A stretch of DNA of 64,000 bases from Escherichia coli (GTDB lineage Bacteria > Pseudomonadota > Gammaproteobacteria > Enterobacterales > Enterobacteriaceae), in assembly GCA_022969815.1 (NCBI GenBank), contig GCA_022969815.1_4535.1, one strand, 5' to 3'. Of this stretch, positions 7,458 through 61,882 are shown piece after piece. The number at the start of each line of letters is the position of its first letter. The first letter of the stretch is position 1. The translations under genes and the position numbers were made by a program. The notes under the pieces were generated by a model. That model was given only the letters and a program-made list of their open reading frames with translations, did no database searches and was not told the origin of the DNA.

Positions 7458-7479
7458 AGTTTCCTCTCTTTTTAGTTAA

Positions 7480-7503
7480 ATAAAAAGGGCATTTCTGCCC
7501 TTT
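7480..7503 (-). terminator. rho-independent terminator after tail tube gene
   Basis: GGGCATTTCTGCCC hairpin followed on minus strand by T-run. Confidence 0.5.
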
Positions 7504-21568: not shown

Positions 21569-21647
21569 TGGAGGCGGGAATCGGATTCGAACCGATGATC
21601 TCCAGCATATGAAACTGGCGAGGACGACCAAACTCCTCTATCCCGCT
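21569..21647 (-). tRNA. tRNA-Met (anticodon CAU; Ile2 not excluded)
   Basis: T-arm ATCGG-TTCGAAT-CCGAT, anticodon loop UUCAUAU, encoded CCA; folded by eye. Confidence 0.55.
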
Positions 21648-21651
21648 ATTA

Positions 21652-21724
21652 GGTGTCCCGTGCTGGATTCGAACCAGCATCACAATAGTTGTGGATCTCT
21701 TATCCTGTAAGTCTAACGGGAAAC
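21652..21724 (-). tRNA. tRNA-like element, anticodon arm unresolved
   Basis: Canonical T-arm GCTGG-TTCGAAT-CCAGC and acceptor-like 3' end, but no canonical anticodon stem-loop found. Confidence 0.3.
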
Positions 21725-21798
21725 TGGTTGTTTCGACAAGAATCGAACTTGTATCTCACGATTATCAGTCGTGGGTTCTACCATTGAACTACGAAACA
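21725..21798 (-). tRNA. tRNA-Ile (anticodon GAU)
   Basis: Acceptor UGUUUCG/CGAAACA, D-arm GUUC-AAUGGUA-GAAC, anticodon loop CUGAUAA, T-arm, encoded CCA. Confidence 0.6.
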
Positions 21799-21821
21799 TT
21801 TAATTGGTAGGAATTGCAGGA

Positions 21822-22163
21822 TTACCAAGTAACATCATGCCCTGAATGGAAAGCGCAATGACAGTTCTTACAGAGTAAGACGCAATTCTCTATCTCTTTG
21901 TCTATTCTTGCAAGTGACCAGCCACGCATAGATCCGTAGTTCTTATCTTTTATTGCTGGGTCAAGATGGTGAATATCCAAAGATTCTTCATACTGATTAA
22001 ATCCGCAAGCGGCGCACTTACCTCCTAACTTATCACGAGCATATTTTTTCTTATGTTGTCCAAGTTCTGTCGTATACTTATTATGACAGGCTCCACAAAT
22101 AGATTTCTTATGTCCGTAGAATTTCGTAGGATCTTCTTCGCCACAATGACTGCATTTACACAT
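21822..22163 (-). CDS. HNH endonuclease
   Basis: 113 aa; Cys-rich MCKCSHCGEED...CGACHNKY...CKNCHCAFHSGH with zinc-finger/HNH spacing; embedded in tRNA cluster. Confidence 0.55.
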   Translation of the reverse strand: MCKCSHCGEEDPTKFYGHKKSICGACHNKYTTELGQHKKKYARDKLGGKCAACGFNQYEESLDIHHLDPAIKDKNYGSMRGWSLARIDKEIENCVLLCKNCHCAFHSGHDVTW

Positions 22164-22184
22164 ACAAAAAATCTCTTTACAAAT

Positions 22185-22260
22185 TGGTCAGCCTAAGAAG
22201 ACTTGAACTTCTAACCTCACCGCCCCAAACGGCGCACTCTTCCAATTGAGCTATAGGCTG
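22185..22260 (-). tRNA. tRNA-Pro (anticodon UGG)
   Basis: Acceptor CAGCCUA/UAGGCUG, anticodon stem CGCCG/CGGUG with loop UUUGGGG, T-loop UUCAAGU, encoded CCA. Confidence 0.6.
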
Positions 22261-22460
22261 TTAATAAAAAATCTCACGTCTTATACAAGCTAACCTTTTG
22301 CCTGATGCATGAAATTTAAATACATTCTAAAGGTACACCGTAAAAGATTGTCGGGGCGATACTTCAAAAACATACCGATCCGTAGATCGATAATCAGACA
22401 AACTTCGACGGCTCCTCGTTTTTAACTTCACACTTAAGGTAGTGACTCACCTTTGTTATA

Positions 22461-22536
22461 TGGCTGGTCTGTCTGGATTTGAACCAAACCTACGACAGTC
22501 AAAGTGTCGTGTGCTACCGGACTACAATACAAACCA
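22461..22536 (-). tRNA. tRNA-Gln (anticodon UUG)
   Basis: Starts with U1-A72 pair as in bacterial tRNA-Gln; anticodon stem CGACA/UGUCG, loop CUUUGAC; T-loop UUCAAAU; encoded CCA. Confidence 0.6.
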
Positions 22537-22626
22537 TTTAATGAAGGGCAACCAGAAGAGGTGTGAGAGAAGGAGAAAACCATGAGTAAAAGAGAAAGTT
22601 TTCTGGCAACCCTTTATTAAATAATT

Positions 22627-22700
22627 TGGAGCGTTCTACGAGTTTCGAACTCGTGCCGCCGACTTGGAAGGACGGAATGCTACCGCTACACCAAGAACGC
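22627..22700 (-). tRNA. tRNA-Gly (anticodon UCC)
   Basis: Acceptor GCGUUCU/AGAACGC, anticodon loop CUUCCAA, T-arm ACGAG-UUCGAAA-CUCGU, encoded CCA. Confidence 0.55.
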
Positions 22701-22929
22701 CCTACATCTTTACTATACTACATTTTACTATCAGTTGTCAATAGTTTTATTGGGCGGGACAGTGACGAGTATCCCATTGGGTGACTAACCCTACGTTCGG
22801 TTGTGATTAATCTCCTGGGTGTCGCTTGCAACACTGGAAAACTCTCACGTCGATGGGAGAATCCGCTTCTTCTTTACCCCATCCAACCCTACTCCGGTCA
22901 AGTTTCAGGTGACTCTTTTTGTGATCAAC

Positions 22930-23260
22930 ACAATACTAAGAACACTGTCTTTCGAGCAGACCTTGTGCACAGGATACGACGATCAATCACAGTGCTCTTA
23001 ATGTTGTGCCACAATAATAAGAACATTCAAACGATGACCACTTTTAGTGGAGAGATTTACAAAATGCTCTTAATGTTGTGTTGTGAATACTAACCTCGGA
23101 ACTCATTACCGCGCTTTGGCTCGACCTTATTACAGGTTAGTGAATGTCTTTCGTCCGATTACATTCAATAAATTTGCTTTCTTCACAACGATAAGAACAC
23201 TTAACAGAAGATAGGTCTGATTGCCTCGGATGATTTCTCAGTAGCCTAAATGTTCTTACC
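22930..23260. repeat. repeat-containing spacer within tRNA cluster (TAAGAACA motif x4, 15-bp direct repeat x2)
   Basis: TAAGAACA at 22937, 23018, 23192 and inverted at 23251; GCTCTTAATGTTGTG at 22994-23008 and 23066-23080. Confidence 0.45.
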
Positions 23261-23268
23261 TGTTATGT

Positions 23269-23344
23269 TGGTGCTCCAAGTAGGACTCGAACCTACGACC
23301 TCATGCTTACAAGGCAAGTGCTCTACCAACTGAGCTATTGAAGC
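23269..23344 (-). tRNA. tRNA-Thr (anticodon UGU)
   Basis: Acceptor GCUUCAA/UUGGAGC, D-arm AGCUCAGUUGGUAGAGC, anticodon loop CUUGUAA, T-arm GUAGG-UUCGAGU-CCUAC, encoded CCA. Confidence 0.6.
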
Positions 23345-23696
23345 GTATTGCGCCCCTTCAGCCATGCTTGATGTTGACCAGAACACAGTTAAACTGTGGG
23401 AGGAGGAACACCGCAGGGGGCTTCAGTTGGACGACTTACAGGGAGCGACCCTGTTTCTTTTCTGGGACTCGGCAGGATTCGATACCTGCAATTCCAGAAG
23501 CCTCTTGGCAACTGAGGGTTTACCTTAACCCTACAAGTCCATAATTCTTAAATACTTTGGAGCCTTACTGATAAACCGTTAGTTTGTAACATAGCGTATT
23601 TCCATTCTGGGGCACCGCCTGTGAATGTAATTCCAATACAAACTTTCTCAAGATCAAACCAATTATCAAATAACATTACAACCTCCAGTTTGAATT

Positions 23697-23780
23697 TGGT
23701 GTGAGATGATGGATTCGAACCACCGCGCCTTTCAGAAGGGATTTACAGTCCCCCGCAATCGACCACTCTGCCAATCTCAC
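23697..23780 (-). tRNA. tRNA-Tyr (anticodon GUA)
   Basis: Acceptor GUGAGAU/AUCUCAC, anticodon loop CUGUAAA, long variable arm, T-arm GGUGG-UUCGAAU-CCAUC, encoded CCA. Confidence 0.6.
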
Positions 23781-23904
23781 AAAATTGTTTTTAAAGTAGC
23801 CAGTATTCGCGGTACTGACTATGCGGTATCGGAGATGGTGAGAGCCATCTGCCGAAAGTTTACTCTGTTAAAGTAAGAAACAACAAGCTACATTAAAAAC
23901 AACT

Positions 23905-23990
23905 TGGCGGTAGATGTAGGACTCGAACCTACACGCCGTTTCCGACTACAGTTTAGCAAACTGTTGTGGCTACCATTTCACCAATCTACC
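23905..23990 (-). tRNA. tRNA-Ser (anticodon GCU)
   Basis: Acceptor GGUAGAU/AUCUACC, anticodon stem ACAGU/ACUGU with loop UUGCUAA, long variable arm, encoded CCA. Confidence 0.6.
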
Positions 23991-23996
23991 TAAATT

Positions 23997-24086
23997 TGGA
24001 GGAAGGTAATGGAGTCGAACCATCACCGTATCTCTACAATGGGCCAGGGTTCAAATCTGGTTGCGTACCACTACGCCCTACCTTCC
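23997..24086 (-). tRNA. tRNA-Ser (anticodon UGA; long variable arm, Leu not excluded)
   Basis: Acceptor GGAAGGU/ACCUUCC, anticodon loop UUUGAAC with one stem mismatch, long variable arm, T-loop UUCGACU, encoded CCA. Confidence 0.5.
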
Positions 24087-24321
24087 ATACATTTAATCTA
24101 ACATAAAACGATGTTGATTGTCAACACCTTTTAAAACATTTTATTATGAATGGTGACTCCACCAACCCCCGTTCTCCACGAACGGTACTCTTCGAGCAAT
24201 CTACCCTTGCAATCAAACGTTGTACACCGTTAGCTTACTCATGCATATTTGCCTCATTCTCTGCCAACCATGATCAGTGGTAGGGTTCAAATCACTTGAG
24301 CTAATTCATACTAAAATGTTC

Positions 24322-24396
24322 TGGTGTCTTTACAAGGAATCGAACCTTGACTAAGAGTTTAGAAGACTCCTGTGCTATCCATTACACCATAAAGAC
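24322..24396 (-). tRNA. tRNA-Arg (anticodon UCU)
   Basis: Acceptor GUCUUUA/UAAAGAC, anticodon stem GGAGU/ACUCU with loop CUUCUAA, T-loop UUCGAUU, encoded CCA. Confidence 0.6.
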
Positions 24397-24398
24397 GT

Positions 24399-24473
24399 TG
24401 GTGGCCCTGACTGGTTTCGATCCAGTTGCCTATCGGTTATGAGCCGACTGCTCTCCCATTGAGCTACAGGGCC
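24399..24473 (-). tRNA. tRNA-Met (anticodon CAU; elongator or Ile2-type)
   Basis: Acceptor GGCCCUG/CAGGGCC with G1-C72, D-arm AGCUCAAUGGGAGAGC, anticodon loop CUCAUAA, encoded CCA. Confidence 0.6.
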
Positions 24474-28436: not shown

Positions 28437-28793
28437 ATGGGTGCTATTATTTGGCTTGACGATTTACGTGATCCGAAAGATTACGGTTGTCCAGATGCAA
28501 TCTGGTTTAAAACATCACAGGAACTTCTTGCCTCTCGTTACATGAATGAGGTGCAGAAGGGTTATCGTTCTGTAGACGAGTGGCATTTTGACAATGATTT
28601 AGGAGAAGACTCTGATCAAGAGGGGTACGATGTTTTCTTGCGCTTGGAAGAACTTCTGTTTTTCGGTAAGCCTTGTTTTGGCAATCCTCTTATTTTTGTA
28701 CATACTTCTAACCCAGCAGCGGCAGAGAAGTTTATGCTTGCAGAGGAATCTATGTTGAGGTATGGTATTGAAATGATTCGTGTGAACTATTAA
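28437..28793 (+). CDS. hypothetical protein
   Basis: GAGGAGG RBS; 118 aa. Confidence 0.5.
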   Translation: MGAIIWLDDLRDPKDYGCPDAIWFKTSQELLASRYMNEVQKGYRSVDEWHFDNDLGEDSDQEGYDVFLRLEELLFFGKPCFGNPLIFVHTSNPAAAEKFMLAEESMLRYGIEMIRVNY

Positions 28794-28948: not shown

Positions 28949-29305
28949 ATGAGCAGTCTTGATCATAACATTTGTCACCAACCTCTCACCTGGATTGGTG
29001 AGGGTCATTATGCGCAACGTGTTATCGTCTGTGCTGCGAATAAGTATATTCTGAATAATGGTGAAGAGTTAATTATCCCTTGCGTTCGACATGCAAATCC
29101 TGTACTATATGCACAGTTAAGCGTGTTGAAAGAAGCAGGTGCGATCAGCAAAACTTTGTGCACGCCAGATAATCAAGGCTTTATCGATCAGTATTACAAT
29201 TGGTGGAGTCGTGAGGATGCTTACATCATCGCGGAAAATGCTGACCAGATTGACCATGAGCGTAATGGTCACGACCATGAACTATTTAGCGAGGGATTAT
29301 ACTAA
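28949..29305 (+). CDS. hypothetical protein
   Basis: GGAGAAA RBS before ATG at 28949 (MSSLDHN...). Confidence 0.45.
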   Translation: MSSLDHNICHQPLTWIGEGHYAQRVIVCAANKYILNNGEELIIPCVRHANPVLYAQLSVLKEAGAISKTLCTPDNQGFIDQYYNWWSREDAYIIAENADQIDHERNGHDHELFSEGLY

Positions 29306-29850
29306 TGTTTATTACAAGCGATTTGCATTTTATGCACAAACGTATTCGAGAGTTTGCTCCTGAATATCGTCCGTGGGAAGATATGGACCACATGACAGAA
29401 GCTCTGATTGAAGCATGGAACAAATGTGCTACTACTCCTGGTGTTAAGATGTGGCATTTGGGCGACTTCTGTTTCGGGACTGAAGAAGATACCCGTAAGA
29501 TTGCTTCCCGTCTCCAAGGAGATATCACTTATCTTGTTGGGAACCATGATTACAGCAAGCACCGAGAAGTGCTTGCAGAGTATGGCGAAGTGGTGTATTA
29601 TGACGAAGTGAAATACCAGAAGCTGTTCTTCGTCTTAAGTCATTACCCTATTGCCTCCTGGAACAAACAGGGTCGCGGTAGCATAATGCTCCACGGACAT
29701 TCTCACGGATCTTTCCCTGATGAAGCCTACGGTAAGATGCTTGACGTTGGTTGGGATGCACATGGCAAGATCCTGCACTTTGATGAAGTTATTGAAATGA
29801 TGGAAAAACGAGAAGTCATCACTGTAGACCATCATAAAATTATCCGATAG
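29305..29850 (+). CDS. metallophosphoesterase (calcineurin-like phosphoesterase)
   Basis: Motifs SDLHFMH, GDFCFG, GNHD, HGHSH in canonical order. Confidence 0.75.
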   Translation: MFITSDLHFMHKRIREFAPEYRPWEDMDHMTEALIEAWNKCATTPGVKMWHLGDFCFGTEEDTRKIASRLQGDITYLVGNHDYSKHREVLAEYGEVVYYDEVKYQKLFFVLSHYPIASWNKQGRGSIMLHGHSHGSFPDEAYGKMLDVGWDAHGKILHFDEVIEMMEKREVITVDHHKIIR

Positions 29851-30772: not shown

Positions 30773-30996
30773 TGGCAACAACATTCTATTTTGAAGGTAG
30801 TGAGAAAAAGACTTCCATTACCTTTCAAAGAAACACACCAGCAGAAGATTTCTTATGGATGATAATCGATCATCTGAGAAGCGAAGGTATTCACCATATA
30901 GACGAGTATTTCGCAGAGTCTACAGACTGGCAAAACGTTGTTATGGAAGATGTTATTTTCGAACTACACCATATTATTACGGAGGAAGGAATTTGA
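30772..30996 (+). CDS. hypothetical protein
   Basis: ATG at 30772 (MATTFYFEG...) preferred within ORF 30757..30996. Confidence 0.45.
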   Translation: MATTFYFEGSEKKTSITFQRNTPAEDFLWMIIDHLRSEGIHHIDEYFAESTDWQNVVMEDVIFELHHIITEEGI

Positions 30997-32108
30997 AACA
31001 GACGAATCAAACACTTTACGGTAAAGACTCAAATGGCAAACTGAAGCAATGGACTGTTTTCACAGACGGTGCAACAGTTACTGTAGCTCACGGTAAAGTT
31101 GGTGGAAAGATTACACAAAAATCATACGAAGCGGAAGCTAAAAATACTGGACGTGCAAATGCAACCACTCCAGAAGAACAAGCAGAAGCTGAAGCTTTTG
31201 CCAAGTGGACAAAACAACTGAAAAATGGTTATTATAAAACTATGGAAGAGGCGGAGAACCACGTCCCATCCACACCTATGAAATGCCAGGACTATAAAGA
31301 TTTTGCGCATAAGGTGGTCTTCCCTGGATATGCACAATACAAACTGAATGGCTTACGTTCAATGATCAACATGAAGGGCGAATGTTTGTCTAAAGCTGGA
31401 GAAGTTTACAAACTCCCTCCGCACTGGCAAGGTATTCCAAACTTCATCAGCGAAGTTGTTGGTCATCCTCTGGATGGGGAAGTGTTCGCTGGTCTTGGTG
31501 TTCTTAGTTTGCAACAGATTAATAGTGCATGGAAAAAGCACAATGAGAACACGCCGCTCCTGAACTATTATGTTTATGATGTTCCTGTGGCAGATATGCC
31601 ATTTGAGAAGCGTGTTGAAGTATTGGCGGCTCTTAAGGCTGTAGCTGAAGAGAGTGGTCTGGATGAACTGATCTGTGTAGTACATACAGAGTATATTGAA
31701 AATCAAGAACAGTTGGATGCATTTTATGCTAAAGCTTTGCTTGAAAAAGCTGAAGGTATTGTGTATCGTAATGCTCATGGTGTCTATGAGTTTGATAAAC
31801 GTTCCTATGACGTGATCAAACGAAAACCGCGCCAGACTTTGGAAGTTAAAGTTATTTCTATGCGTTCTGATAAAAATAACGATGGGGTGTTGACAGGTGA
31901 GATGGAGAATGGTAAACTTGTTGAGTTCTTGATGCGAAAAGATGCTCACGAAACTATCAACTACCGTAAAGCAGAAAATGCCGAAACTTTGATTGATCAG
32001 TTTGTTGAGATTGAGTATGAAGAATTTTCTGACGAAGGTATCCCAACTAAACCAGTCGGTGTACGTCTTCGTAAAATGATCCCAGGGACTTGGGAGCCAG
32101 CAGAATAA
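30993..32108 (+). CDS. WGR-domain protein with ligase-like nucleotidyltransferase core (putative ATP-dependent DNA/RNA ligase)
   Basis: TTG start at 30993 with GGAGGAAGG RBS; N-terminal W...HGKVGGK...KNGYY (WGR-like); KLNGLR resembles ligase motif I KxDGxR (D to N); HPLDGEVF resembles motif IV. Confidence 0.45.
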   Translation: MKQTNQTLYGKDSNGKLKQWTVFTDGATVTVAHGKVGGKITQKSYEAEAKNTGRANATTPEEQAEAEAFAKWTKQLKNGYYKTMEEAENHVPSTPMKCQDYKDFAHKVVFPGYAQYKLNGLRSMINMKGECLSKAGEVYKLPPHWQGIPNFISEVVGHPLDGEVFAGLGVLSLQQINSAWKKHNENTPLLNYYVYDVPVADMPFEKRVEVLAALKAVAEESGLDELICVVHTEYIENQEQLDAFYAKALLEKAEGIVYRNAHGVYEFDKRSYDVIKRKPRQTLEVKVISMRSDKNNDGVLTGEMENGKLVEFLMRKDAHETINYRKAENAETLIDQFVEIEYEEFSDEGIPTKPVGVRLRKMIPGTWEPAE

Positions 32109-32518: not shown

Positions 32519-33247
32519 ATGATCGAGAACTTTTTTAAAGAGATTAAGGTAGATGTGGACTTCTATAAGAAAGCAGCTAAACATGTAATCGATTGGAATG
32601 CAAAAGCGCGTGGCGGAGAACAGCCGGAATTTGACCAGGCAATGTTTGTTTCCCAAATCGGGTTTGTTCGTGAAGAACTGAAAGAGTATGAAGAAGCCGC
32701 TAAAACTAATGATCACGTTGAACTCCTGGATGCAGCCGCCGATGTATTCGTTGTTTCCAGTTACCTGGTGTACATGTTCTTTGGTGAAGAAGCAACTCTG
32801 AAGTTCCTTGAGAATCAGGTTGGTACTGTCTTCACAGAAACAATCTACACCGATTTCGACAACATGGAAGCTACCTTTACTGATCCTGTTCAGATGGCAG
32901 TATTGAGTGCTGGTATTATGAACCTTGCGCGTGATACGCTGGTGCGTTCTGTCTATGCAGACAAAAAGATTATGAAAGAAGTTCTTGACAGTAATGATTC
33001 TAAGTACCCTACTAAGAAGCAACTGCTGGCTGTATGGAATACTTCCGATATTGATCTTGCAATTTCACAAGAATGCGCAGCGATTGAAGAGCGTAATGCC
33101 AATCGTCCTGAAGGTGCTTACACTGGCGTACATGCCACGTACAATGAAAAACAGAAAGTTTATGTGTTCTTTGATGATAAAGGTAAGATCATGAAACCTT
33201 CTACCTTTGTTAAACCTGATATTGCAAAAATCATTGCTAAGAAATAA
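32519..33247 (+). CDS. MazG-like nucleotide pyrophosphohydrolase, putative
   Basis: EELKEYEEAAKTNDHVELLDAAADV fits the E-x-x-E...E-x-x-D metal-binding pattern; weak. Confidence 0.3.
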   Translation: MIENFFKEIKVDVDFYKKAAKHVIDWNAKARGGEQPEFDQAMFVSQIGFVREELKEYEEAAKTNDHVELLDAAADVFVVSSYLVYMFFGEEATLKFLENQVGTVFTETIYTDFDNMEATFTDPVQMAVLSAGIMNLARDTLVRSVYADKKIMKEVLDSNDSKYPTKKQLLAVWNTSDIDLAISQECAAIEERNANRPEGAYTGVHATYNEKQKVYVFFDDKGKIMKPSTFVKPDIAKIIAKK

Positions 33248-43541: not shown

Positions 43542-44613
43542 TTTACATAACGAGACTTACAAAACAGGTAAATATCCAGTTTTCATGGGGGAACAGTTGG
43601 GGATTTTTGATTCTATCAACGTGACTTACCCTGAAATGCACCGTCTGTATAAACTCCAGAAAGCCCAAGATTGGGATGAGAATGAAGTGGATCTTAGTCA
43701 GACCCGTAAAGACTTTGTAGCGTGTTCAAAAAACAACTACGATGTTATGATCAAGAACTTGTCGTTCCAGTGGGAGAATGATTCCCTGGCAAAATCAATC
43801 ATCACTTTGTTCTCTCCGTTTTTGAGCAACAATGAAGCTTGCGCTATGATGATGAAGCAGAGTGAAATGGAAGTGCTTCATGCTCTAACTTACTCGGAGA
43901 TCGTTCGCCAGTGTACTCCAAACCCTGTAGAAGTTATTGATCAGATTATGGAGAACGATAAGATCTTCAACCGTATGGGTATCATTGCAGAGATCATGGG
44001 AGATTTGGAAGAAGCAGGTCACAAATATGCACTTGGTCTGATTGAAGCTGATGATAAACTACGTTTGCTGGTCATGAAAGGTCTGGTAGCCCTGATTGGT
44101 CTGGAAGGTATCCAGTTTATCTCTTCTTTCTCGGCAACGTTCGCCTTGGCAGAACAGCAACTGTTTGTAGGTGCTTGTAAACTGATTCAGAAAATCATGT
44201 TGGATGAAATCCTGCATGTTAAAATGGACTATGCTGTCATTGATGCTCTGATGCAAGATCCTGTGTGGAAAAAGATCTACGAAGATAACATCGAAGAACT
44301 TACGACTATTCTGGATACAGTTATCGCTCAAGAAGAGCAGTGGTGTGATTATCTGTTTAGTGAAGGACGTTTTATCGTTGGACTGAATGCTGAACTATCC
44401 CGTCAATGGGTGTACTTCAATGCGGCTCCAATTTATCGTCGTCTGAAGATGAAGCACAGCTTTAAATCTCCTAAACAGAACCCACTACCTTGGATGGACA
44501 TTTGGTTAAACCCAGATCAGATTCAAGCAGCGGCGCAAGAGATCCAAGTTACAGCTTATAAACTGAACTCGGCTAACAAAGATGTTTCTGATGATATGGA
44601 GTTTGACTTCTAA
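43528..44613 (+). CDS. nrdB: ribonucleoside-diphosphate reductase beta subunit (class Ia)
   Basis: Di-iron ligand helices (EVLHALTYSE), acidic C-terminal tail ending DDMEFDF; 361 aa. Confidence 0.8.
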   Translation: MAAINLHNETYKTGKYPVFMGEQLGIFDSINVTYPEMHRLYKLQKAQDWDENEVDLSQTRKDFVACSKNNYDVMIKNLSFQWENDSLAKSIITLFSPFLSNNEACAMMMKQSEMEVLHALTYSEIVRQCTPNPVEVIDQIMENDKIFNRMGIIAEIMGDLEEAGHKYALGLIEADDKLRLLVMKGLVALIGLEGIQFISSFSATFALAEQQLFVGACKLIQKIMLDEILHVKMDYAVIDALMQDPVWKKIYEDNIEELTTILDTVIAQEEQWCDYLFSEGRFIVGLNAELSRQWVYFNAAPIYRRLKMKHSFKSPKQNPLPWMDIWLNPDQIQAAAQEIQVTAYKLNSANKDVSDDMEFDF

Positions 44614-53977: not shown

Positions 53978-54307
53978 ATGGAAATTACTACAGAACAGGC
54001 TCTTATCGACGAAGGGCGTAAAATCTTAGAGAAGCATTTGGGAGATATACATCAAACCCCTGGCTACTTAGGGTGGCGCATGGTTGAAGCTGTAGATTTC
54101 CTTCCTCGTACAAAACAAGACGTTGAAATGCGTTCTCTGTTCTTGCTTGTCAAAGTAGACGGGGATACGCCTTTCAAACTCGCAGCTTCACACATTGAGA
54201 AGGTGGAGGAGAAAGCTTATTCAGAGTTTGCTGAACTCGTATTACAGGAGGATCTCGAAGGGAAGGTAAACATTTTTATTTTTCTGGATTTTGAGGAGGA
54301 GATATGA
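53978..54307 (+). CDS. hypothetical protein
   Basis: GAGGAGG RBS. Confidence 0.5.
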   Translation: MEITTEQALIDEGRKILEKHLGDIHQTPGYLGWRMVEAVDFLPRTKQDVEMRSLFLLVKVDGDTPFKLAASHIEKVEEKAYSEFAELVLQEDLEGKVNIFIFLDFEEEI

Positions 54308-55041
54308 TTTTATATAAAGAGATTACCGTGGAGCAGGATCAAGACCTCTTCATTATCGGGGACTTGCATGGTTGCTACGATCTTTACTTGAAAGGTAAGA
54401 ATTATCTTGGTATCCGAGATACAGATGTGGTTGTGTCTCTCGGAGATTTGACAGATCGTGGTAAACAAAACTTCAAATGTGTTGTGGAATTTACACGCAA
54501 AGAGAATCGTTATGCGCTTTGTGGTAATCACGAAGATATGATGATTAAAGGCTTACTGGAAGGGGATCGTCGTTACTACGAATGTTGGTATCAGAACGGT
54601 GGTCATACGGTATTGGAAGAATGTGATGAAGAAGGATCTACTCTGCTCGCTACGATGGTTGAGGACAACCCTGTGATTTTGGTTGTGAACTATCGAGGTA
54701 TGAAGTTAGGGTTTATTCATGGTGGATATCCTTCCTCTTTTGAATATCTCCCCCTGACAGACATACCACACCTACGTATGAGCAAAGCAAAAGAAGCTAC
54801 TTTCGCTGAAGCTTTGATGTGGGATCGTGATATGGTGGAGTGTGCCAAAGAAGGCATGAAACTTCCGGTTGTTATGGGTGTTGATTATGTGTTTCACGGG
54901 CACTCTTATGTGAAAGAACCTTTGATCAATGCTAATCGTGTTTATATGGACACTGGGTCTGTTTTCAATAACAACTTAACGTTTGCCTATTTTGATGCAG
55001 ACGGTGGACTTCAGTTTTATTCAACTTTACAGGAGGATTAA
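54304..55041 (+). CDS. Ser/Thr protein phosphatase (lambda PPase-like metallophosphatase)
   Basis: GDLHGCYD, GDLTDRG, GNHE motifs in canonical order. Confidence 0.8.
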   Translation: MILYKEITVEQDQDLFIIGDLHGCYDLYLKGKNYLGIRDTDVVVSLGDLTDRGKQNFKCVVEFTRKENRYALCGNHEDMMIKGLLEGDRRYYECWYQNGGHTVLEECDEEGSTLLATMVEDNPVILVVNYRGMKLGFIHGGYPSSFEYLPLTDIPHLRMSKAKEATFAEALMWDRDMVECAKEGMKLPVVMGVDYVFHGHSYVKEPLINANRVYMDTGSVFNNNLTFAYFDADGGLQFYSTLQED

Positions 55042-55334
55042 TGTATAAAATTACAATCGTAGAATCTGTGGGCGAGATTCGTAAAGAAATTATTCTGGAG
55101 ACGGAAGATCTGGAACTGGTACGTGAAATCATAATTGGGAAGGATGTAGATAAGGTTGAGTCGGACGCTCCGAATCTGATGATCGATGATCAATATGCAG
55201 AATTTCGTCGTATTTTTGAGGAGGAAAGGAAGAAGTGGGGCAAAGAACCACACGTTTTTCGTCCTTATAATCCATATCCTTCTGGTGATCCGTGGATCAT
55301 GACTAACAGAAACCCGTTTGAAATAACCTGTTGA
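55041..55334 (+). CDS. hypothetical protein
   Basis: AGGAGG RBS. Confidence 0.5.
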   Translation: MYKITIVESVGEIRKEIILETEDLELVREIIIGKDVDKVESDAPNLMIDDQYAEFRRIFEEERKKWGKEPHVFRPYNPYPSGDPWIMTNRNPFEITC

Positions 55335-55342
55335 GGTGGCCT

Positions 55343-55921
55343 ATGAGCAACCTATTTTACACAGGTGTGGGAAGTCGAGAGATAACCCACGAAGAATGGG
55401 ATTTAATGGTCGCTGTAGCAAAGTGGTTGGCTAACTGTGGTTTTACTTTACGTTCAGGTAATGCAAACGGTAGTGACTCTGCTTTCGAAACTGGTGTAGA
55501 AGAATCTAAAAACAAAACTCTCAAGGAGATTTATATCCCTTGGGAGAAGTTTGAAGGCAATGATATCCCAGGTGAGAAGATAGTGCTTGCTAATCCTGAC
55601 AGTATGAACTATGCTATCAGTCTCCAGTGGATAAAGGAAATCCATCCAGCATTTGATAAACTTAAACAAGGTGCACGTAAATTGCATCAACGCAACGTTC
55701 ATCAGGTGTTGGGACAAGATCTGGAGCATCCCGTGCCTTCCTTATTCTTATTGGCATGTTCCAAAGAGGATAAGAAGGGAGATGTTATGGGCGGAACAAG
55801 GACGGCGTGGCTCATCGCTAAAGCTAATAACGTTCCATGTTTTAACTTACGTGGTAAAACAAAGGAAGAACTTTATGCTTTTCTTAAACCGTTGGTCAAG
55901 GGGGCAATCAGTGGCAATTAA
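55343..55921 (+). CDS. DprA/SLOG-family Rossmann-fold protein, putative
   Basis: YTGVGSRE and LRSGNANGSDSAFETG resemble DprA/Smf blocks; ATG at 55343. Confidence 0.35.
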   Translation: MSNLFYTGVGSREITHEEWDLMVAVAKWLANCGFTLRSGNANGSDSAFETGVEESKNKTLKEIYIPWEKFEGNDIPGEKIVLANPDSMNYAISLQWIKEIHPAFDKLKQGARKLHQRNVHQVLGQDLEHPVPSLFLLACSKEDKKGDVMGGTRTAWLIAKANNVPCFNLRGKTKEELYAFLKPLVKGAISGN

Positions 55922-57436: not shown

Positions 57437-57447
57437 TTGTGTGAGTG

Positions 57448-57476
57448 TTGACAAGACACGAAGAACCTGGTAGACT
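57448..57476 (+). promoter_or_regulatory. sigma70-like promoter
   Basis: TTGACA - 17 nt - TAGACT. Confidence 0.5.
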
Positions 57477-57504
57477 TGTCTCATCAACTAAGAGAGGAGG
57501 ATAT

Positions 57505-58449
57505 ATGAAAGTATTAATCGGTAGTCGTGCGTTGGAAATGATTTGTCGTTCTCGTGGTGTAGAACTGTATCGTGCTTGCGTAGATCTGGATTACCTCTGC
57601 ACTGAAGAAGAGTGGCAAGCAGAAGCCCAGAAATTCTCGAAAGATCGTTTCGTGGAAATTGTTGAACGTAAAGGTAACAAAGGGCATATCAAAATGATCG
57701 CGGGTGCTCATCTGGAATACGATATTGCTCAACCAGGGGATTCTACAGAAGCATTGATCGAATACATTAAAGAGAATGCAGATCATCTGCCACATATTGG
57801 TTACGATGTGGTTGCACCTTTGGATGTTTTGTATCTCCTGAAAATGAGTCACCGTTTTAAGAAGGACAGTCCTCACTTCCTGAAAACAATGAAGGATATC
57901 CACTTCATGCGTAACCTTGGAGCGAAGATCCCTGAAGAGTTGGAAGATACATACAAACTGCGTCAGAAGGAGTCCTATAATTACGGGCACCCTAATCTGA
58001 ACGTGAAAAGTAAAGATTTCTTCAAGGGTGATGAAGTGCCTTATGTGTATGATCACGATACCATCCATGAAGCTGTTGCCGTGTTGGGTGATCCCGCTTA
58101 TAAATCATACATGAAAGACGATAGCGAAGTGATGACCAGTAAAGAGAAGTTCTTTGCACAACCTAAACATATCCGTTTGCTGGGTGTTTACGAAGAAGCT
58201 TGTGTCCTGGCATTAGAGCGTTCACAGATCCCGTTTGGGGAAGATGTAGATGGTCCAACTCCTAAACAAAGTTTTATGATGGCTTTATCCAAAGTTTGTA
58301 CCTCGATCACCAGTGGATGGTTTCGTGAATATGCCTGGGAAAACTTCCAAGTTGTGGTAAAACTGTATGAGCAAATGGGCCAAGATGATTACGTGGCACG
58401 TTTTAAAGCAAATCTTCACATGGTGAAACCTTACGAAGGAGGTTATTGA
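57505..58449 (+). CDS. hypothetical protein
   Basis: GAGAGGAGG RBS before ATG at 57505; 314 aa. Confidence 0.5.
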   Translation: MKVLIGSRALEMICRSRGVELYRACVDLDYLCTEEEWQAEAQKFSKDRFVEIVERKGNKGHIKMIAGAHLEYDIAQPGDSTEALIEYIKENADHLPHIGYDVVAPLDVLYLLKMSHRFKKDSPHFLKTMKDIHFMRNLGAKIPEELEDTYKLRQKESYNYGHPNLNVKSKDFFKGDEVPYVYDHDTIHEAVAVLGDPAYKSYMKDDSEVMTSKEKFFAQPKHIRLLGVYEEACVLALERSQIPFGEDVDGPTPKQSFMMALSKVCTSITSGWFREYAWENFQVVVKLYEQMGQDDYVARFKANLHMVKPYEGGY

Positions 58450-58450
58450 T

Positions 58451-58849
58451 ATGGGTTGGTGTGATCAGTCACAAAGTTACTTCAAAGTAACACATGTGGA
58501 TCTCAATAAAGCAAGAGTGAAGTTGTTGAGTATTGAAAAAGAAACAGCAGCTATTGACAAACGCCTCCGAGAGAGTAAAGTGGTAATCACTTCTTGGTTC
58601 GGACTGAAACGTAAAATCCTTACGCAGCGAGAGCATGTAATTAAAAATATGCATGGTTGGGCTTGGTTCCACGACATGGCAAAACACTTGGGGTACATTT
58701 CTACTGAAGAACACGACCTCTTGGAGCTACGTTATCGCCTTCCAGATGTAGAAGATTTAGACTTGTGGATCAGTTCCGAACAAATCTTCTTAACCGAGAG
58801 CGATTGGAAGAAAGTCAATATTTGTCTTAAATGGAGGGAGAATGAGTAA
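58451..58849 (+). CDS. hypothetical protein
   Basis: GAAGGAGG RBS. Confidence 0.5.
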   Translation: MGWCDQSQSYFKVTHVDLNKARVKLLSIEKETAAIDKRLRESKVVITSWFGLKRKILTQREHVIKNMHGWAWFHDMAKHLGYISTEEHDLLELRYRLPDVEDLDLWISSEQIFLTESDWKKVNICLKWRENE

Positions 58850-59525
58850 AGTAGTTTTATCAACATTTGATGGATCTGGAATCATGGTACTTCGTTACGC
58901 AGAAGCAGGGCATAAATGCTACTGTGTAAATGCTGACGAAGGTGATCACGGGGCTTATGAAGTTCGCATGGAACATCCTAACATCACTTACGTGAACGCA
59001 TGGATTGATTCCAACTTCAACCCTGAAGATTACGGTATTCCTAAGCCAGATATTATCTTTGGCTTCCCTCCGTGTACCATGCTTGCTGGTTGCGGTAGTA
59101 AGCACGAACGTAGCGCAGAAGAATTGGAAGAAGCTTTGGCTAACATTCGTATCGTGGAAGCTTTAGGAAATAAATACAACGTTCCGTGGATGATTGAGAA
59201 TCCAGTGGGTAAACTGTCAACATTGTGGCGTAAACCGGATTTCTATTTCGATCCTTACGAATATGGCGGATATCTGTTTGATGAAGAAGGCAGCTTCCAC
59301 CCTAAAATGCCTACCCGCGACGGTTACACAAAGAAAACCTGTATTTGGCATGGCAATGGTTTTGTTAAGCCTGTGAAGAAGCCTGTGGAACATATTGGTT
59401 GCTTCTGGGGCTGGAAAAGTTTAGGCGGAGCAAGTGCGAAAACAAAACAACTCCGATCGTTAACTGCTCGCGGTTTTGCTCGTGCTGTGTTTTTATCTAA
59501 CAACCTTTTAGATAAGGAGGAATGA
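58842..59525 (+). CDS. DNA cytosine-5 methyltransferase-like protein (minimal), putative
   Basis: LSTFDGSG (motif I-like FxGxG), GFPPCTML (motif IV PC), ENPVG (motif VI ENV-like); only 227 aa. Confidence 0.4.
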   Translation: MSKVVLSTFDGSGIMVLRYAEAGHKCYCVNADEGDHGAYEVRMEHPNITYVNAWIDSNFNPEDYGIPKPDIIFGFPPCTMLAGCGSKHERSAEELEEALANIRIVEALGNKYNVPWMIENPVGKLSTLWRKPDFYFDPYEYGGYLFDEEGSFHPKMPTRDGYTKKTCIWHGNGFVKPVKKPVEHIGCFWGWKSLGGASAKTKQLRSLTARGFARAVFLSNNLLDKEE

Positions 59526-60190
59526 TGACCCATTTAAAACCTTTTGGTGGAAAACCTATTGTGGCGTATCAAGTAGATCGTGATGATTGGGAAGGCAGTG
59601 TAGTTGTCTTTGGTAATCATTTCTTTGCTGTGCGTCGTAAAGGCGCAAGTATGTTGGATTGTGAGGAGGAGTATTGTCATGTCTCCCGCGCCAAAGAATT
59701 CGACCAGTATGCAGAAAAAGGTTTTGTGCCTGTCAAAGCTTTACTGGAGGCAGGATGGTGGATACACTCTGCTCATGATGGTGTTAGACTTGACGAGTCT
59801 GTAGATAATCTTGAGGCAGATTTTGACGAATGGGAAGATGGCATGTATGTTGAGGAGGATCTTGTATTTTCCCTTGACGAGAAAAGTGTGTGGAAGAACT
59901 GGGAAGAAATGGAACGTCACGCGCATTTTATCAACAACGCTTTGATTCGTAAAGCCTGGTTCACGGAGGCGGTGAAGATAGCGTATCCGCAATTCACCTT
60001 TACAGAGGTTTGGGGCGGTCCCCACCACATCACCCATACAGCATTTTTCGACTTCCCTGGTTCACGTTACAAAGGTAATGTAATGTGGGACTGGGATGAG
60101 AATGAAGTACCATCTGTTCAAGACTTTCGTTGTTATGTTTGCCAAGGCGATCAAGAAGCCCTTGACAAATACCTGCAAAGTCTGGTATAG
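59522..60190 (+). CDS. hypothetical protein
   Basis: AAGGAGGA RBS. Confidence 0.5.
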   Translation: MMTHLKPFGGKPIVAYQVDRDDWEGSVVVFGNHFFAVRRKGASMLDCEEEYCHVSRAKEFDQYAEKGFVPVKALLEAGWWIHSAHDGVRLDESVDNLEADFDEWEDGMYVEEDLVFSLDEKSVWKNWEEMERHAHFINNALIRKAWFTEAVKIAYPQFTFTEVWGGPHHITHTAFFDFPGSRYKGNVMWDWDENEVPSVQDFRCYVCQGDQEALDKYLQSLV

Positions 60191-60204
60191 TGCAAGCAAC
60201 TGAA

Positions 60205-60236
60205 CAAAGCCTCCTTTTCAGGGGGCTTTTCTTTTA
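60205..60236 (+). terminator. rho-independent terminator
   Basis: AGCCTCC...GGGGGCT hairpin followed by TTTTCTTTT. Confidence 0.45.
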
Positions 60237-60247
60237 TGGGAGGAAAT

Positions 60248-60742
60248 ATGTTTCAAGTAGAAATTCATGTGCACGACAGTTGTTCAAATTGCGAAACTTG
60301 TGGTTACAATAGTTCAACCATGATCACTATTAGCGGAGACTTAGGACATGCTAAGTTTGGCGAAGTCGCAAGCTGCTTCGGCGGAGAGGATGCAGATTGG
60401 CATGATATTGCTTTGTGGCTATGCGGAAGACTGAATGTAAATTGTAAAGACTTCCCTGAACTGTTGAGCCGAAATCTTGTCGATAGTCGGGAACAAGCCT
60501 ACAATATTTATGCCGCTTCTGTTTATGTTGATCATAAATGGGTAGAAGATGAAGAAGCTGAACGTTTGCTACGCCTCTACTATGAAGCAGAGGAAGCTTA
60601 TGATAACTATTACAGCATGTCCAACATCCTGCGTTTGTTTGCAGAGTTTGATATTTACTTTGAAGTGAGTTATTCTGAAGATGAAGTGTATGATTTTGAT
60701 GACGATGATTACGAGGAGGATGAAGAATGCCAAGACGATTAA
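60248..60742 (+). CDS. hypothetical acidic protein
   Basis: GGGAGGA RBS before ATG at 60248; very acidic C-terminus. Confidence 0.45.
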   Translation: MFQVEIHVHDSCSNCETCGYNSSTMITISGDLGHAKFGEVASCFGGEDADWHDIALWLCGRLNVNCKDFPELLSRNLVDSREQAYNIYAASVYVDHKWVEDEEAERLLRLYYEAEEAYDNYYSMSNILRLFAEFDIYFEVSYSEDEVYDFDDDDYEEDEECQDD

Positions 60743-61530
60743 TAGTGATCAGCGGCGCTGGTCTAAGCGCCGATAGCGGTGTACAAACATTCCGTACAGA
60801 AACAGAGAGTGGAAAAGCCTTATGGGACGAGTACGATTTAGAGGAGGTTTGTAATATTGGGGCATTCCAGGCAGGTTATCGTAGACGTACATGTCCCGAT
60901 TTACCTGTTATCGGAGGTGAGGATGAGGAAGGATACAACCTCTACAACAAGACCCATGATTTCTATAACAAGCGTCGTATAGAGTTGGATAATATAGATC
61001 CAAACGCTGCACATCGTCTGATTGCTCGTTTATACTCAGAGTATGGCGCTGATCGTATTTTAAACATCACCACTAACGTGGACGATCTTTTGGAACGTGC
61101 TGGTGTTGTTCACGAAGATGTTCTGCATGTGCATGGCTACCTACCAGAAATTGTAGTGGATCGGAAGTTTATTAAAGAAATCGGTTATGCAAGTGTGGAT
61201 GTGGATAAGTACGATTACGTGAAACCTAACGTTGTCTTCTTCGGGGAATCTGCTCCGCTGTACACAGAGATGTACCATATGCTCGATAATCTCACATCTC
61301 AGGATATGGTGATTGTTGTAGGTTGCTCTAATCAAGTGATCAACTTCAACTGGGAGTTGTTCCCAGCCCTCAATACAGGAACAAAGATGGTCGTAGTTAA
61401 TCCTGGGGTTAATTACGAAGAAACACTTCTCTATGAAGATCGTGGAGTTTTTGTTTACCGAGAAAAAGCTGCAACAGCCTTCAGTAATGAAGGTTTCATT
61501 AAAATGATCGAAGACCACTTAAACAAATAA
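60727..61530 (+). CDS. Sir2-family (sirtuin-like) NAD-binding protein lacking the zinc ribbon
   Basis: VISGAGLSADSGVQTFR, ITTNVDDLLERAG, HVHG, KPNVVFFGES, VVGCS parallel sirtuin catalytic blocks; no CxxC...CxxC Zn module. Confidence 0.55.
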   Translation: MPRRLIVISGAGLSADSGVQTFRTETESGKALWDEYDLEEVCNIGAFQAGYRRRTCPDLPVIGGEDEEGYNLYNKTHDFYNKRRIELDNIDPNAAHRLIARLYSEYGADRILNITTNVDDLLERAGVVHEDVLHVHGYLPEIVVDRKFIKEIGYASVDVDKYDYVKPNVVFFGESAPLYTEMYHMLDNLTSQDMVIVVGCSNQVINFNWELFPALNTGTKMVVVNPGVNYEETLLYEDRGVFVYREKAATAFSNEGFIKMIEDHLNK

Positions 61531-61536
61531 ACCAAC

Positions 61537-61562
61537 CAAGGGGCTACGGCCCCTTTCTTATT
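61537..61562 (+). terminator. rho-independent terminator
   Basis: AGGGGCTACGGCCCCT hairpin followed by TTCTTATT. Confidence 0.5.
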
Positions 61563-61573: not shown

Positions 61574-61846
61574 ATGCAACAAGAAACTTTCGATTTTTAT
61601 CTCGCCAATTATGTCTACTACTTCTCTAATGGTACACAGAAAGGGGAAGGCAACCTTTATCTGGCTACCAACACTGGAGCAGGTGTTCGTAAAGCCAATA
61701 TTGATTTAGCAAGAGAAACAGTTCGTTCTGGACTGGAAGAGACGCTTGAAACTCCGGTTGTTGTGGTTATACAAACTATCAGTTACCTTGCAACCTGTAC
61801 TAAAGAGGATTTTGAGGCTCCTCAAACACAATCTAACGAAGCATAA
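61574..61846 (+). CDS. hypothetical protein
   Basis: AGGAG RBS; last plus-strand gene before convergent terminator. Confidence 0.5.
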   Translation: MQQETFDFYLANYVYYFSNGTQKGEGNLYLATNTGAGVRKANIDLARETVRSGLEETLETPVVVVIQTISYLATCTKEDFEAPQTQSNEA

Positions 61847-61882
61847 AAGAAAGGCACCCAAGTGGGTGCCTTTTCTATTTTA
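61845..61882. terminator. bidirectional rho-independent terminator
   Basis: AGGCACCCAAGTGGGTGCCT hairpin flanked by A-rich and T-rich runs between convergent genes. Confidence 0.55.

Follow-up and report, generated by a model that had tools for sequence, protein, structure and literature searches.

An apparently intact zinc-less sirtuin of a Phapecoctavirus-like coliphage and the acidic-protein gene that overlaps it

The window (the whole stretch of 64 000 nucleotides that was analysed) belongs to a Phapecoctavirus-like coliphage, and its DNA is 99 % identical to that of phage phiWec188. It includes two overlapping genes, the first encoding a highly acidic protein and the second a sirtuin. 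These genes, the candidate signals around them and the landmarks within the sirtuin are as follows.

60162..60191, + strand: promoter-like sigma-70 match (TTGACA-18-TATAGT with TG, 11/12), a pattern from a consensus scan only, located where the preceding gene ends
60206..60229, + strand: terminator-like GC-rich hairpin followed by a T-run, the 5' boundary of the two-gene unit
60248..60742, + strand: acidic-protein gene, 164 aa, PHROG 9509 (ORF and profile match), with GGAGG 4 nt before the ATG
60713..60742, + strand: putative translational-coupling region, acidic tail and sirtuin start
60727..61530, + strand: sirtuin gene, 267 aa, PHROG 2162 and Pfam SIR2
60754..60795, + strand: residues 10–23, GAGLSADSGVQTFR, the NAD-binding glycine-rich loop and the Phe-Arg of the cofactor-binding loop (from alignments)
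60964..60975, + strand: residues 80–83, Y-N-K-R, aligned with Tyr92...Arg95 of E. coli CobB, the acyl-carboxylate pocket pair of class III
61075..61083, + strand: residues 117–119, N-V-D of TTNVDD, the nicotinamide-ribose pocket, corresponding in the alignment to CobB N130-I131-D132
61132..61134, + strand: catalytic His136, aligned with CobB His147
61135..61224, + strand: residues 137–166, Cys-less relic of the zinc ribbon with a conserved I-G-Y (from alignments and the AF2 model)
61538..61555, + strand: terminator-like hairpin followed by T-rich sequence, 8 nt past the sirtuin stop codon

An earlier note on this DNA had recognised the sirtuin catalytic blocks in the second gene, and all of the motifs (GAGLSADSGVQTFR, TTNVDDL, HVHG, VVFFGES and VVGCS) are indeed present. 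The ORF matches the Pfam SIR2 profile (PF02146) at 75.4 bits (E 7.1e-21; gathering cut-off 24 bits), and the PHROG 2162 profile matches it full-length (residues 2–267, E 7e-100). As the first score lies above the gathering threshold and the second match covers the whole protein, this is not a chance ORF. A protein annotated as cobB in phiWec188 is 100 % identical to it. However, a true CobB orthologue, as that annotation implies, is ruled out at the equivalog level by the NCBIfam scores, which fall far below the curated CobB equivalog/subfamily cut-offs (NF040867 and NF001753; 84.9 bits against a cut-off of 320, and 101.4 bits against 243).

Homologues of the sirtuin were found in 981 phage records, and the phages that carry it include T5-like, rV5-like, phi92/phAPEC8-like, KVP40-like and jumbo phages. 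Identity is 50–60 % to the proteins of Vequintavirus, Mydovirus and T5-like phages, and 37–40 % to those of Vibrio and Yersinia jumbo phages. Judged by its sequence, the protein is a member of an already known phage family and is not new. Phage sirtuins have been described as a sirtuin clade of their own with a predicted role in RNA repair (Iyer, Burroughs, Anantharaman and Aravind 2022, PMC9503650), and the missing zinc ligands of phage Sir2 proteins (KVP40 and phiSt2) were reported in 2016 (PMC5107563). Literature searches found no biochemical characterisation of any phage sirtuin. The locus by itself adds nothing beyond the public annotations and these two papers.

Among relatives of known structure, the best by sequence were E. 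coli CobB (1.6e-17), Sir2Af2, Sir2Af1 and SIRT5. The fold comparison that the earlier note had proposed, sirtuin versus defence-type SIR2, was made with an AF2 model (pLDDT 90.2, pTM 0.87), and the model fell within the canonical sirtuins, which made up 50/50 of the top matches in a Foldseek search of the PDB with CobB (1s5p) in first place (TM 0.72/0.85). Sequence and predicted fold together put the protein beside E. coli CobB and class III, and away from defence-type SIR2. The Rossmann fold that marks the Sir2 family is predicted as well.

When genuine E. coli CobB was aligned, its GAGxS, F-R, N117/D119 and His136 positions (phage numbering) were all matched in the phage protein, and the FGE loop is retained in VVFFGES. 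N117 and H136 occur in 146/146 full-length cluster representatives and D119 in 142/146, while F22 and R23 of the cofactor-binding loop are found in 135 and 144 of the same 146. On this comparison the NAD and catalytic site is intact, and the enzyme is apparently active. The acyl-pocket pair, which binds the carboxylate of succinyl- or malonyl-lysine and has Y102/R105 as its SIRT5 counterpart, is also largely kept; Y80 is present in 140/146 and R83 in 111/146 representatives, and both are invariant in a 40-sequence family alignment. Where R83 is replaced, it is by L, F, M or V, the spectrum expected for residues lining an acyl-chain pocket.

The features that CobB, SIRT5 and Sir2Af1 share with the phage sirtuin are the GAGxS, F-R and (T/Q)N(V/I)D motifs, a catalytic His, an FGE loop and the Tyr92/Arg95 pair. 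The differences from CobB and class III are an identity of about 28–32 %, the lack of zinc ligands and a change of GTSxxVYP to GCSNxVINFNW; in place of the peptide-binding strand of CobB, GTSGHVYP, the phage family has its own G-C-S-N-x-V-I-N-F-N-W, from which the Pro is missing. Compared with CobB, the phage protein also has Cys42 in place of Ala76 and no N-terminal extension. Because the peptide strand is altered, as is the zinc module, which makes up one side wall of the cleft for the peptide, the substrate of the phage sirtuin could differ.

The absence of zinc-ribbon cysteines, remarked on before, was confirmed. There is no Cys between His136 and the KPNVVFFGE strand (residues 137–166) and no conserved Cys column here in 120 homologues, so that the protein lacks the Cys4 zinc-ribbon module used as a feature of membership in the Sir2 family. 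Zinc cysteines are likewise absent from all of the PHROG 2162 phage sirtuins compared, a family that includes the T5 Sir2-like protein and Sir2/CobB of KVP40 and phiSt2. The segment is modelled as beta strands at 137–144, 148–151 and 165–169 with a pLDDT of about 95. When cluster representatives were sorted by their Cys count in this segment, 45 had 0–1 and 96 had at least three, mostly as CxxC...CxxC, and in the Cys-bearing relatives the segment is of comparable length and includes the same I-G-Y. As these relatives have their CxxC...CxxC in a hairpin of about equal length, only the ligands were lost here; sequences and model together indicate that the zinc ligands disappeared in a sub-clade, and that the beta-hairpin they once stapled was retained.

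The earlier note had proposed a divergent NAD-utilising enzyme, whether deacylase, ADP-ribosyltransferase or NADase, and this was borne out in part: use of NAD is predicted from the intact site, a deacylase is favoured, and an NADase is very improbable. Defence SIR2 NADases (ThsA, DSR1/2, SIR2-HerA and SPARSA; SIR2_2) belong with the phage sirtuin to the Sir2 superfamily; they too are not known to have a canonical zinc ribbon, and the Asn and His are conserved in them. Unlike them, the phage sirtuin still has both the acyl pocket and a small domain of canonical type, and its carrier is a lytic phage. Among the PADLOC defence SIR2 models only PDC-S65 matched, with 15 bits (E 0.002) across a stretch of 35 residues, and Pfam SIR2_2 gave no match at E up to 0.1. 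The sirtuin is single-domain, and no defence sensor or partner (SLOG, HerA, pAgo/APAZ, TIR or DSR C-terminal domain) is fused to it or adjacent. With no PADLOC or SIR2_2 match, a defence-type SIR2 identity was ruled out.

It is very improbable that the protein is an NAD+ hydrolase, or an enzyme with NAD-derived small molecules as substrates, that alters host NAD pools or defence signalling. Its orthologue in a Yersinia jumbo phage lies 2–5 kb downstream of the NAD-salvage genes for NAMPT and NadM-Nudix, and in KVP40-like Vibrio phages the sirtuin is combined with NAD salvage (PMC5107563); such neighbours fit any NAD-consuming activity. Against hydrolysis stand the lack of an above-noise match to defence SIR2, the canonical deacylases among the fold neighbours and the conserved substrate pocket. 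In addition, no NAD-salvage genes are annotated in the whole genome of PsgM04F (96 % identical to the window over 59500–62000), and depletion of NAD would be expected to hurt a lytic phage that depends on host metabolism. The suggestion that the enzyme manipulates host NAD metabolism or counters NAD-depleting defence also found no support.

Transfer of mono-ADP-ribose to a host protein or nucleic acid so as to reprogramme it, an activity of the macro-linked SirTM sirtuins and a weak one of some canonical sirtuins, would be compatible with an NAD site that is intact together with its residues for nicotinamide cleavage, and the changed peptide strand and zinc module would allow a non-canonical acceptor. 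ADP-ribosylation of host proteins is common among phages (reviewed in PMC9503650). We nevertheless consider this activity improbable, as the catalytic His and Tyr/Arg acyl pocket needed for deacylation are conserved and the closest relatives are all deacylases. In the neighbouring genes that were scanned there was no SirTM-type macro-domain operon partner, nor did a macro, NADAR or any other enzyme able to reverse the modification adjoin the sirtuin.

The protein encoded upstream has a net charge of –32 and a pI of 4.05 (41 Asp+Glu vs 9 Lys+Arg). Its N-terminal beta-hairpin bears an invariant C-x2-C-G and one more Cys that is likewise invariant; there is also a helical core, and the acidic tail, which is disordered, reads ...DFDDDDYEEDEECQDD at its end. 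It is probably metal-binding. Cys165 in the acidic tail was considered as a fourth zinc ligand, a candidacy weakened by the fact that its TGC codon and the preceding GAA make the sirtuin ATG in both genera that have the arrangement described below; distant homologues do not have this residue. The start at 60248, given already in the earlier note, is the one annotated in phiWec188 and shared by most homologues, and with its GGAGG it is to be preferred to the mechanical ORF start at 60236, which is unlikely.

That this gene ends in an acidic tail and overlaps the sirtuin gene, as noted previously, is correct. The overlap is 16 nt (60727–60742), up to the stop codon of the acidic-protein gene; the Shine-Dalgarno sequence of the sirtuin, GAGGAGG (60713–60719), falls within Glu codons of the tail, and the sirtuin ATG (60727–60729) arises at a GAA|TGC (Glu-Cys) codon junction. 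The same GAATGC/ATG arrangement is found in Justusliebigvirus Bas60, whose partner protein shares only about 35 % identity, and retention of the overlap across two genera at this level of identity argues for coupled expression. The sole element of the locus that we did not find described elsewhere is this conserved coupling of sirtuin translation to that of an acidic protein with a Cys motif.

The acidic-protein family is found only in Stephanstirmvirinae and some jumbo phages (137 records vs about 981 for the sirtuin), and as most sirtuin phages are without it, the core function of the enzyme cannot depend on this partner. A 21–25-aa insertion in the sirtuin (residues 49–73) was rejected as a partner-specific docking site, since long segments are present at this position in 73/119 homologues, down to 53 % identity. 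The homologues with a long segment include proteins of 280–282 aa, and the named members of that size class (P0062 and P0092) are T5-like and partner-less.

The tail had been called DNA-mimic-like, and the very high negative charge density is indeed shared with the DNA mimics Ocr and ArdA, but no similarity of fold to solved DNA mimics, or to any known fold, was detected. The acidic protein could still be an anti-restriction or anti-defence DNA mimic that is functionally unrelated to the sirtuin and next to it through synteny only. Its extreme acidity and disordered acidic tail would suit this role, as would the finding that its jumbo-phage homologues do not adjoin a sirtuin. However, besides the missing structural match to Ocr/ArdA, it differs from them in its translational coupling to an enzyme gene, by an overlap with the sirtuin start that is conserved in two genera, and in its conserved CxxC...C, a motif that to our knowledge is not a feature of known DNA mimics. 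A stand-alone DNA mimic therefore seems quite unlikely.

The main rival to a deacylase is RNA-end repair. According to the published prediction, which was made because phage orthologues elsewhere sit among RNA-end-processing genes (PMC9503650), the sirtuin would use NAD+ in the manner of Tpt1/KptA to ADP-ribosylate and take off a 2'-phosphate, or to process a phosphorylated RNA end in another way, after tRNA cleavage by host anticodon nucleases, in company with enzymes that process cyclic phosphates and heal RNA ends. Such neighbourhoods were confirmed in two cases. In Vequintavirus Bas53 the gene of an Rnl1-type RNA ligase (RNA_lig_T4_1) is followed by cREC-type, sirtuin and MazG-like genes, and kinase and phosphoesterase genes lie upstream in divergent orientation; in T5-like DT571/2 a HAD_SAK_2 'Swiss-army-knife RNA repair' phosphatase gene lies two genes downstream of the sirtuin. 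No RNA-end-healing neighbourhood of this kind, drawn from RNA ligase, cREC, kinase, MazG, HAD, 2H and Nudix genes, surrounds the sirtuin in the window, where the adjoining genes encode the acidic protein of PHROG 9509, an uncharacterised protein of 222 aa, a protein resembling C5-MTases and a DUF7275 protein. Here and throughout Stephanstirmvirinae, the sirtuin gene has no RNA ligase, cREC or HAD_SAK gene next to it and is coupled to PHROG 9509 instead.

There are 11 tRNA genes in the window, and cREC (28437..28793) is clustered there with phosphoesterase, ligase and MazG-like genes, which would fit RNA repair, but the sirtuin is 28–32 kb from this cluster, and neither the window nor the complete PsgM04F genome has a detectable RNA ligase or polynucleotide kinase. 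The gene for one remote relative of the acidic partner (98 % probability in hhalign) overlaps that of an RNA ligase, and a NADAR gene is found two genes further along. However, this pairing is on a single metagenomic contig (L006), and a general link of the partner family to RNA ligase was not confirmed, as an unrelated gene is found at that position in the closest annotated relative, Xanthomonas phage XbC2. The genes downstream of the partner homologue in XbC2, L008 and Serratia phage BF yielded no Pfam domain. The conserved Arg83 could bind a phosphate as well as a carboxylate, but its hydrophobic replacements are more in keeping with an acyl pocket than with phosphate binding. We know of no sirtuin for which 2'-phosphotransferase activity has been demonstrated, and as the folds are unrelated any likeness to Tpt1/KptA would be a functional analogy only. 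In the Tpt1/KptA reaction an anionic oxygen displaces the nicotinamide of NAD+, and the ribose 2''-OH then attacks (PMC11417386). RNA-end repair appears possible, if rather doubtful, at this locus.

Our preferred reading, held tentatively and at somewhat less than even chances for all of its parts jointly, is that the gene pair encodes a catalytically competent, zinc-less, CobB/class III-like phage sirtuin acting as an NAD-dependent lysine deacylase, together with a coupled acidic partner. The sirtuin would bind NAD+, cleave off nicotinamide and move the ADP-ribose to the oxygen of an acyl-lysine in host or phage proteins. Given the conserved CobB Tyr92/Arg95 pair, it probably takes acidic acyl groups such as succinyl, besides acetyl. 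The two proteins would be expressed as a translationally coupled two-gene unit, and the acidic protein may be a stoichiometric partner, either regulator or adaptor, in Stephanstirmvirinae. We give little credence to a more radical form of this partnership, an obligate two-subunit enzyme in which the acidic protein is a metal/substrate module or NAD gate and which acts on a non-protein substrate, such as the phosphorylated ends of cleaved tRNA, to oppose host anticodon nucleases; if true, it would be the first sirtuin shown in nucleic-acid repair.

Among lytic phages with sequenced genomes, roughly a thousand encode this sirtuin, and an answer to whether it is a deacylase or an RNA-repair enzyme would settle an open annotation. 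A deacylase would mean that host acylation is reset during infection, and the protein would show that the small domain of a sirtuin can fold without zinc. As a separate observation, which speaks against deacylation, the host already has a CobB of its own.

On nucleotide comparison, region 59500-62000 of the window shares 99 % identity with Escherichia phages phiWec188 and phiWec190 and 96 % with a record named Pseudomonas phage PsgM04F and, as judged from these sequences, the window is a portion of a Phapecoctavirus-like (Stephanstirmvirinae) coliphage genome. The Sir2-like feature is real and was correctly described in an earlier note: the ORF at 60727..61530 (+) is present with the sirtuin catalytic motifs reported there, and its 267 aa product passes the Pfam SIR2 model (75.4 bits, threshold 24 bits) and matches PHROG 2162 over its whole length (E 7e-100). 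The sirtuin is ordinary, in that an identical protein is already in GenBank (phiWec188, 100 % identity, labelled 'cobB: NAD-dependent protein deacylase') and the family is already in PHROGs. The best solved relative by sequence is E. coli CobB (1s5p, E 1.6e-17), followed by Sir2Af2, Sir2Af1 and SIRT5. The earlier note had proposed a structure comparison, and the AlphaFold2 model (40 homologues; pLDDT 90.2, pTM 0.87) is confident and has the canonical sirtuin fold, the best 50 Foldseek matches in the PDB all being canonical sirtuins with CobB first (TM 0.72/0.85). A CobB orthologue was ruled out because the score falls far short of the thresholds curated for the NCBIfam CobB/deacylase models, and a defence-type NADase SIR2 because there was no meaningful match to the PADLOC defence models or to Pfam SIR2_2.

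The lack of zinc-ribbon cysteines noted earlier was also borne out. Residues 137-166 include zero Cys, no conserved Cys column was found there among 120 homologues, and the zinc cysteines are absent from all seven phage-record sirtuins aligned (Phapecoctavirus, Justusliebigvirus, Vequintavirus, one T5-like phage, one Vibrio phage and two jumbo phages). Of 146 full-length cluster representatives (50 % identity) retrieved with the family profile, 96 have at least three Cys, usually as CxxC...CxxC, in a segment of comparable length with the same I-G-Y, and 45, concentrated among the closest relatives of the sirtuin, have 0-1. Since relatives with CxxC...CxxC have a comparable segment, and the zinc-module strands are present in the AlphaFold2 model (pLDDT ~95), the zinc-ribbon scaffold is, by alignment and model, retained and the loss limited to the ligands. 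The missing ligands are not new, as Skliros et al. 2016 (PMC5107563) found no zinc ligand site in the Sir2/CobB of Vibrio phages phiSt2 and KVP40, suggested that salt bridges take its place, and named T5 and others as carriers; both the zinc-less small domain and the distinct phage clade are published.

In order to compare active sites, the genuine E. coli cobB, taken from host DNA within a 'phage' record (ON470612.1), was aligned with the phage sirtuins. HMMER alignments to PDB chains are consistent with it; their numbering offset was checked on the CobB mutants A76G and I131C. CobB N130/D132 correspond to phage N117/D119, catalytic H147 to H136, and Y92/R95, the class III pair binding the succinyl-lysine carboxylate, to Y80/R83, while the Ala76 position is occupied by Cys42. 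CobB GTSGHVYP is replaced by G-C-S-N-x-V-I-N-F-N-W, which, with the zinc region, is a family-specific departure from CobB. Conservation among the 146 representatives was as follows.

Conservation of sirtuin residues (residue, count, alternatives)
H136, 146/146, none
N117, 146/146, none
D119, 142/146, S, T
F22, 135/146, Y, W
R23, 144/146, H, K
Y80, 140/146, H, M, W, F, C
R83, 111/146, L, F, M, V, A

With the NAD and catalytic residues conserved in this way, the sirtuin is almost certainly catalytically competent, and it can be securely inferred to bind NAD+ and cleave nicotinamide by canonical sirtuin chemistry. The bound NAD+ would release nicotinamide, with acyl-lysine as the favoured acceptor, leading to lysine deacylation. 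We tentatively favour this lysine deacylase reading because residues specific to acyl-lysine chemistry or recognition are kept (the His, the FGE loop and the Tyr/Arg pair), because the replacements of Arg83 are hydrophobic, as expected of an acyl pocket, and because the closest relatives are all deacylases. Of the activities suggested earlier for a divergent NAD enzyme, deacylation is thus the one tentatively preferred, and ADP-ribosyltransferase or NADase activity has no specific support; nor has the suggested manipulation of NAD or counter-defence role.

The main rival is RNA repair. Sirtuin homologues occur in 981 phage records, from Escherichia, Salmonella, Klebsiella, Vibrio, Erwinia and other phages, and Iyer et al. 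(PMC9503650) predicted a KptA-like RNA-repair role for the phage clade from gene neighbourhoods. Two of these, recurrent in two other phage lineages, were confirmed: Vequintavirus Bas53 has the order Rnl1-type RNA ligase, cREC-type protein, sirtuin and MazG-like, with a kinase and phosphoesterase on a divergent transcript, and T5-like DT571/2 has a HAD_SAK_2 'RNA repair' phosphatase two genes 3' of the sirtuin. The window includes a related cluster.

28437..28793 (+), cREC_REC 'cyclic-phosphate processing receiver' protein (Pfam E 2.6e-13)
29305..29850 (+), calcineurin-like phosphoesterase
30855..32108 (+), ATP-dependent DNA-ligase-family protein
32519..33247 (+), MazG/PRA-PH-like pyrophosphohydrolase
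21569..24473 (-), 11 tRNA genes, ~4 kb upstream of the cluster

This cluster is syntenic with the Vequintavirus RNA ligase-cREC-sirtuin-MazG block, yet lacks the RNA ligase, kinase and sirtuin. In this phage the sirtuin is thus distant from the healing genes (28-32 kb), and no RNA ligase or polynucleotide kinase was detectable in the window or the whole PsgM04F genome, so that RNA repair, which the neighbourhoods in the two other lineages support, is a weaker candidate here. The annotation of the whole PsgM04F genome lists no gene for NAD salvage; in a Yersinia jumbo phage, NAMPT and NadM-Nudix are situated 2-5 kb upstream of the sirtuin gene. Beyond the window, this phage type (PsgM04F, 43836..44363) encodes a NADAR-domain protein, labelled hypothetical (Pfam E 7e-34), that may process ADP-ribose. 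In DT571/2, a HAD_SAK_2 phosphatase (6982..7488, T5.105 homologue, Pfam E 2e-20) carries the RefSeq label 'Sir2 (NAD-dependent deacetylase)' via PHROG 18062, probably an annotation error spread from the PHROG name.

The sirtuin closes a rightward operon of nucleotide-metabolism genes and genes of unassigned role. As described earlier, it is overlapped, by 16 nt, by an upstream gene (60248..60742) whose product has an acidic C-terminal end, ...DFDDDDYEEDEECQDD. The signals around this pair are as follows.

60162-60191 (+), near-consensus sigma-70-like promoter match (11/12, extended -10 TG)
60206-60229 and 61538-61555, terminator-like hairpins flanking the pair
before 60248 (+), GGAGG, strong Shine-Dalgarno of the acidic gene
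7 nt before 60727 (+), GAGGAGG, strong Shine-Dalgarno of the sirtuin gene

The predicted start of the promoter match lies just 5' of the first hairpin, which transcripts would reach immediately; possible readings of 60162..60229 (+) are a promoter overlapping a terminator and an attenuator-like 5' leader of the pair. A 90 aa gene (61574..61846) is the last of the operon before a bidirectional terminator-like hairpin (61849..61874, both strands), where a convergent leftward block of small genes is met.

What is new at this locus is limited to the conserved translational coupling of the sirtuin to this acidic Cys-motif protein. Glu codons GAGGAG of the tail form the sirtuin Shine-Dalgarno, the GAA/TGC junction supplies its ATG, and CAAGACGATTAA overlaps the conserved sirtuin N-terminus M-P-R-R-L. 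Because its codons have these roles, the conserved tail end E-E-x-E-E-C-Q-D-D is at least in part a product of the overlap, and little weight should be put on the tail, earlier called DNA-mimic-like, as a sign of DNA mimicry. Justusliebigvirus Bas60 has this GAATGC start overlap too, though the partner there is just ~35 % identical. This conserved coupling argues for co-expression of, and a functional link between, the two proteins.

The acidic protein (41 acidic and 9 basic residues, pI 4.05) belongs to PHROG 9509, a family without assigned function, and has no match in Pfam, NCBIfam or PADLOC; the 'aminoacyl-tRNA synthetase' label on the Bas60 homologue is unsupported. C19-E-x-C22-G and C47 are invariant, and the AF2 model, which is confident (pLDDT 87.5), has a long N-terminal beta-hairpin with the CxxC in its turn, four helices and a disordered tail (157-168). 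Homologues occur in 137 phage records, those listed belonging to Stephanstirmvirinae, while jumbo phages gave weak matches to the N-terminal part. As ~144 records have a sirtuin with 60 % or more identity to the window copy, the two genes co-occur roughly 1:1 within that subfamily, but the partner is missing from most phages that carry the sirtuin. In metagenomic contig SRR22103695_7103 (1374..3554), the gene of one distant homologue (98 % hhalign probability across the Cys domain) and a PF09414 RNA ligase gene overlap by 14 nt, and a NADAR-domain gene follows two genes downstream; no second such pairing was found in related jumbo-phage loci. The block resembles an insertion, flanked by a DUF5856 gene upstream and thymidine kinase downstream, in a jumbo-phage region otherwise syntenic with GAP32, XbC2 and Serratia BF.

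Further genes in the sirtuin operon include, ~5-6 kb upstream, a calcineurin-like/NinI-type phosphoesterase (54304..55041, +) and a DprA-like (SLOG-type Rossmannoid) protein (55331..55921, +, PHROG 768). Three genes upstream of the pair is a 334 aa protein with DUF7277 (E 2e-9) and DUF7275 (E 2e-76) (57445..58449, +). A 227 aa C5-cytosine-methyltransferase-like protein (58842..59525, +, PHROG 757; motifs GFPPC and ENP/ENV-type) appears to lack a target-recognition domain, as it matches type II MTases weakly and only over their N-terminal half; at this position the relative in Justusliebigvirus encodes a Dcm-like MTase of full size.

ON470612.1 ('Escherichia phage vB_EcoS-640R1, partial genome') carries E. 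coli chromosomal lolD-lolE-nagK-cobB-ycfZ-ymfA-potD, which indicates host DNA, by assembly contamination or transduction. OR584014.1 is 96 % identical to this coliphage region, yet its entry names it a Pseudomonas coronafaciens phage, and comparable records are labelled as Campylobacter or Acinetobacter phages; for Phapecoctavirus-like genomes these host labels look doubtful.
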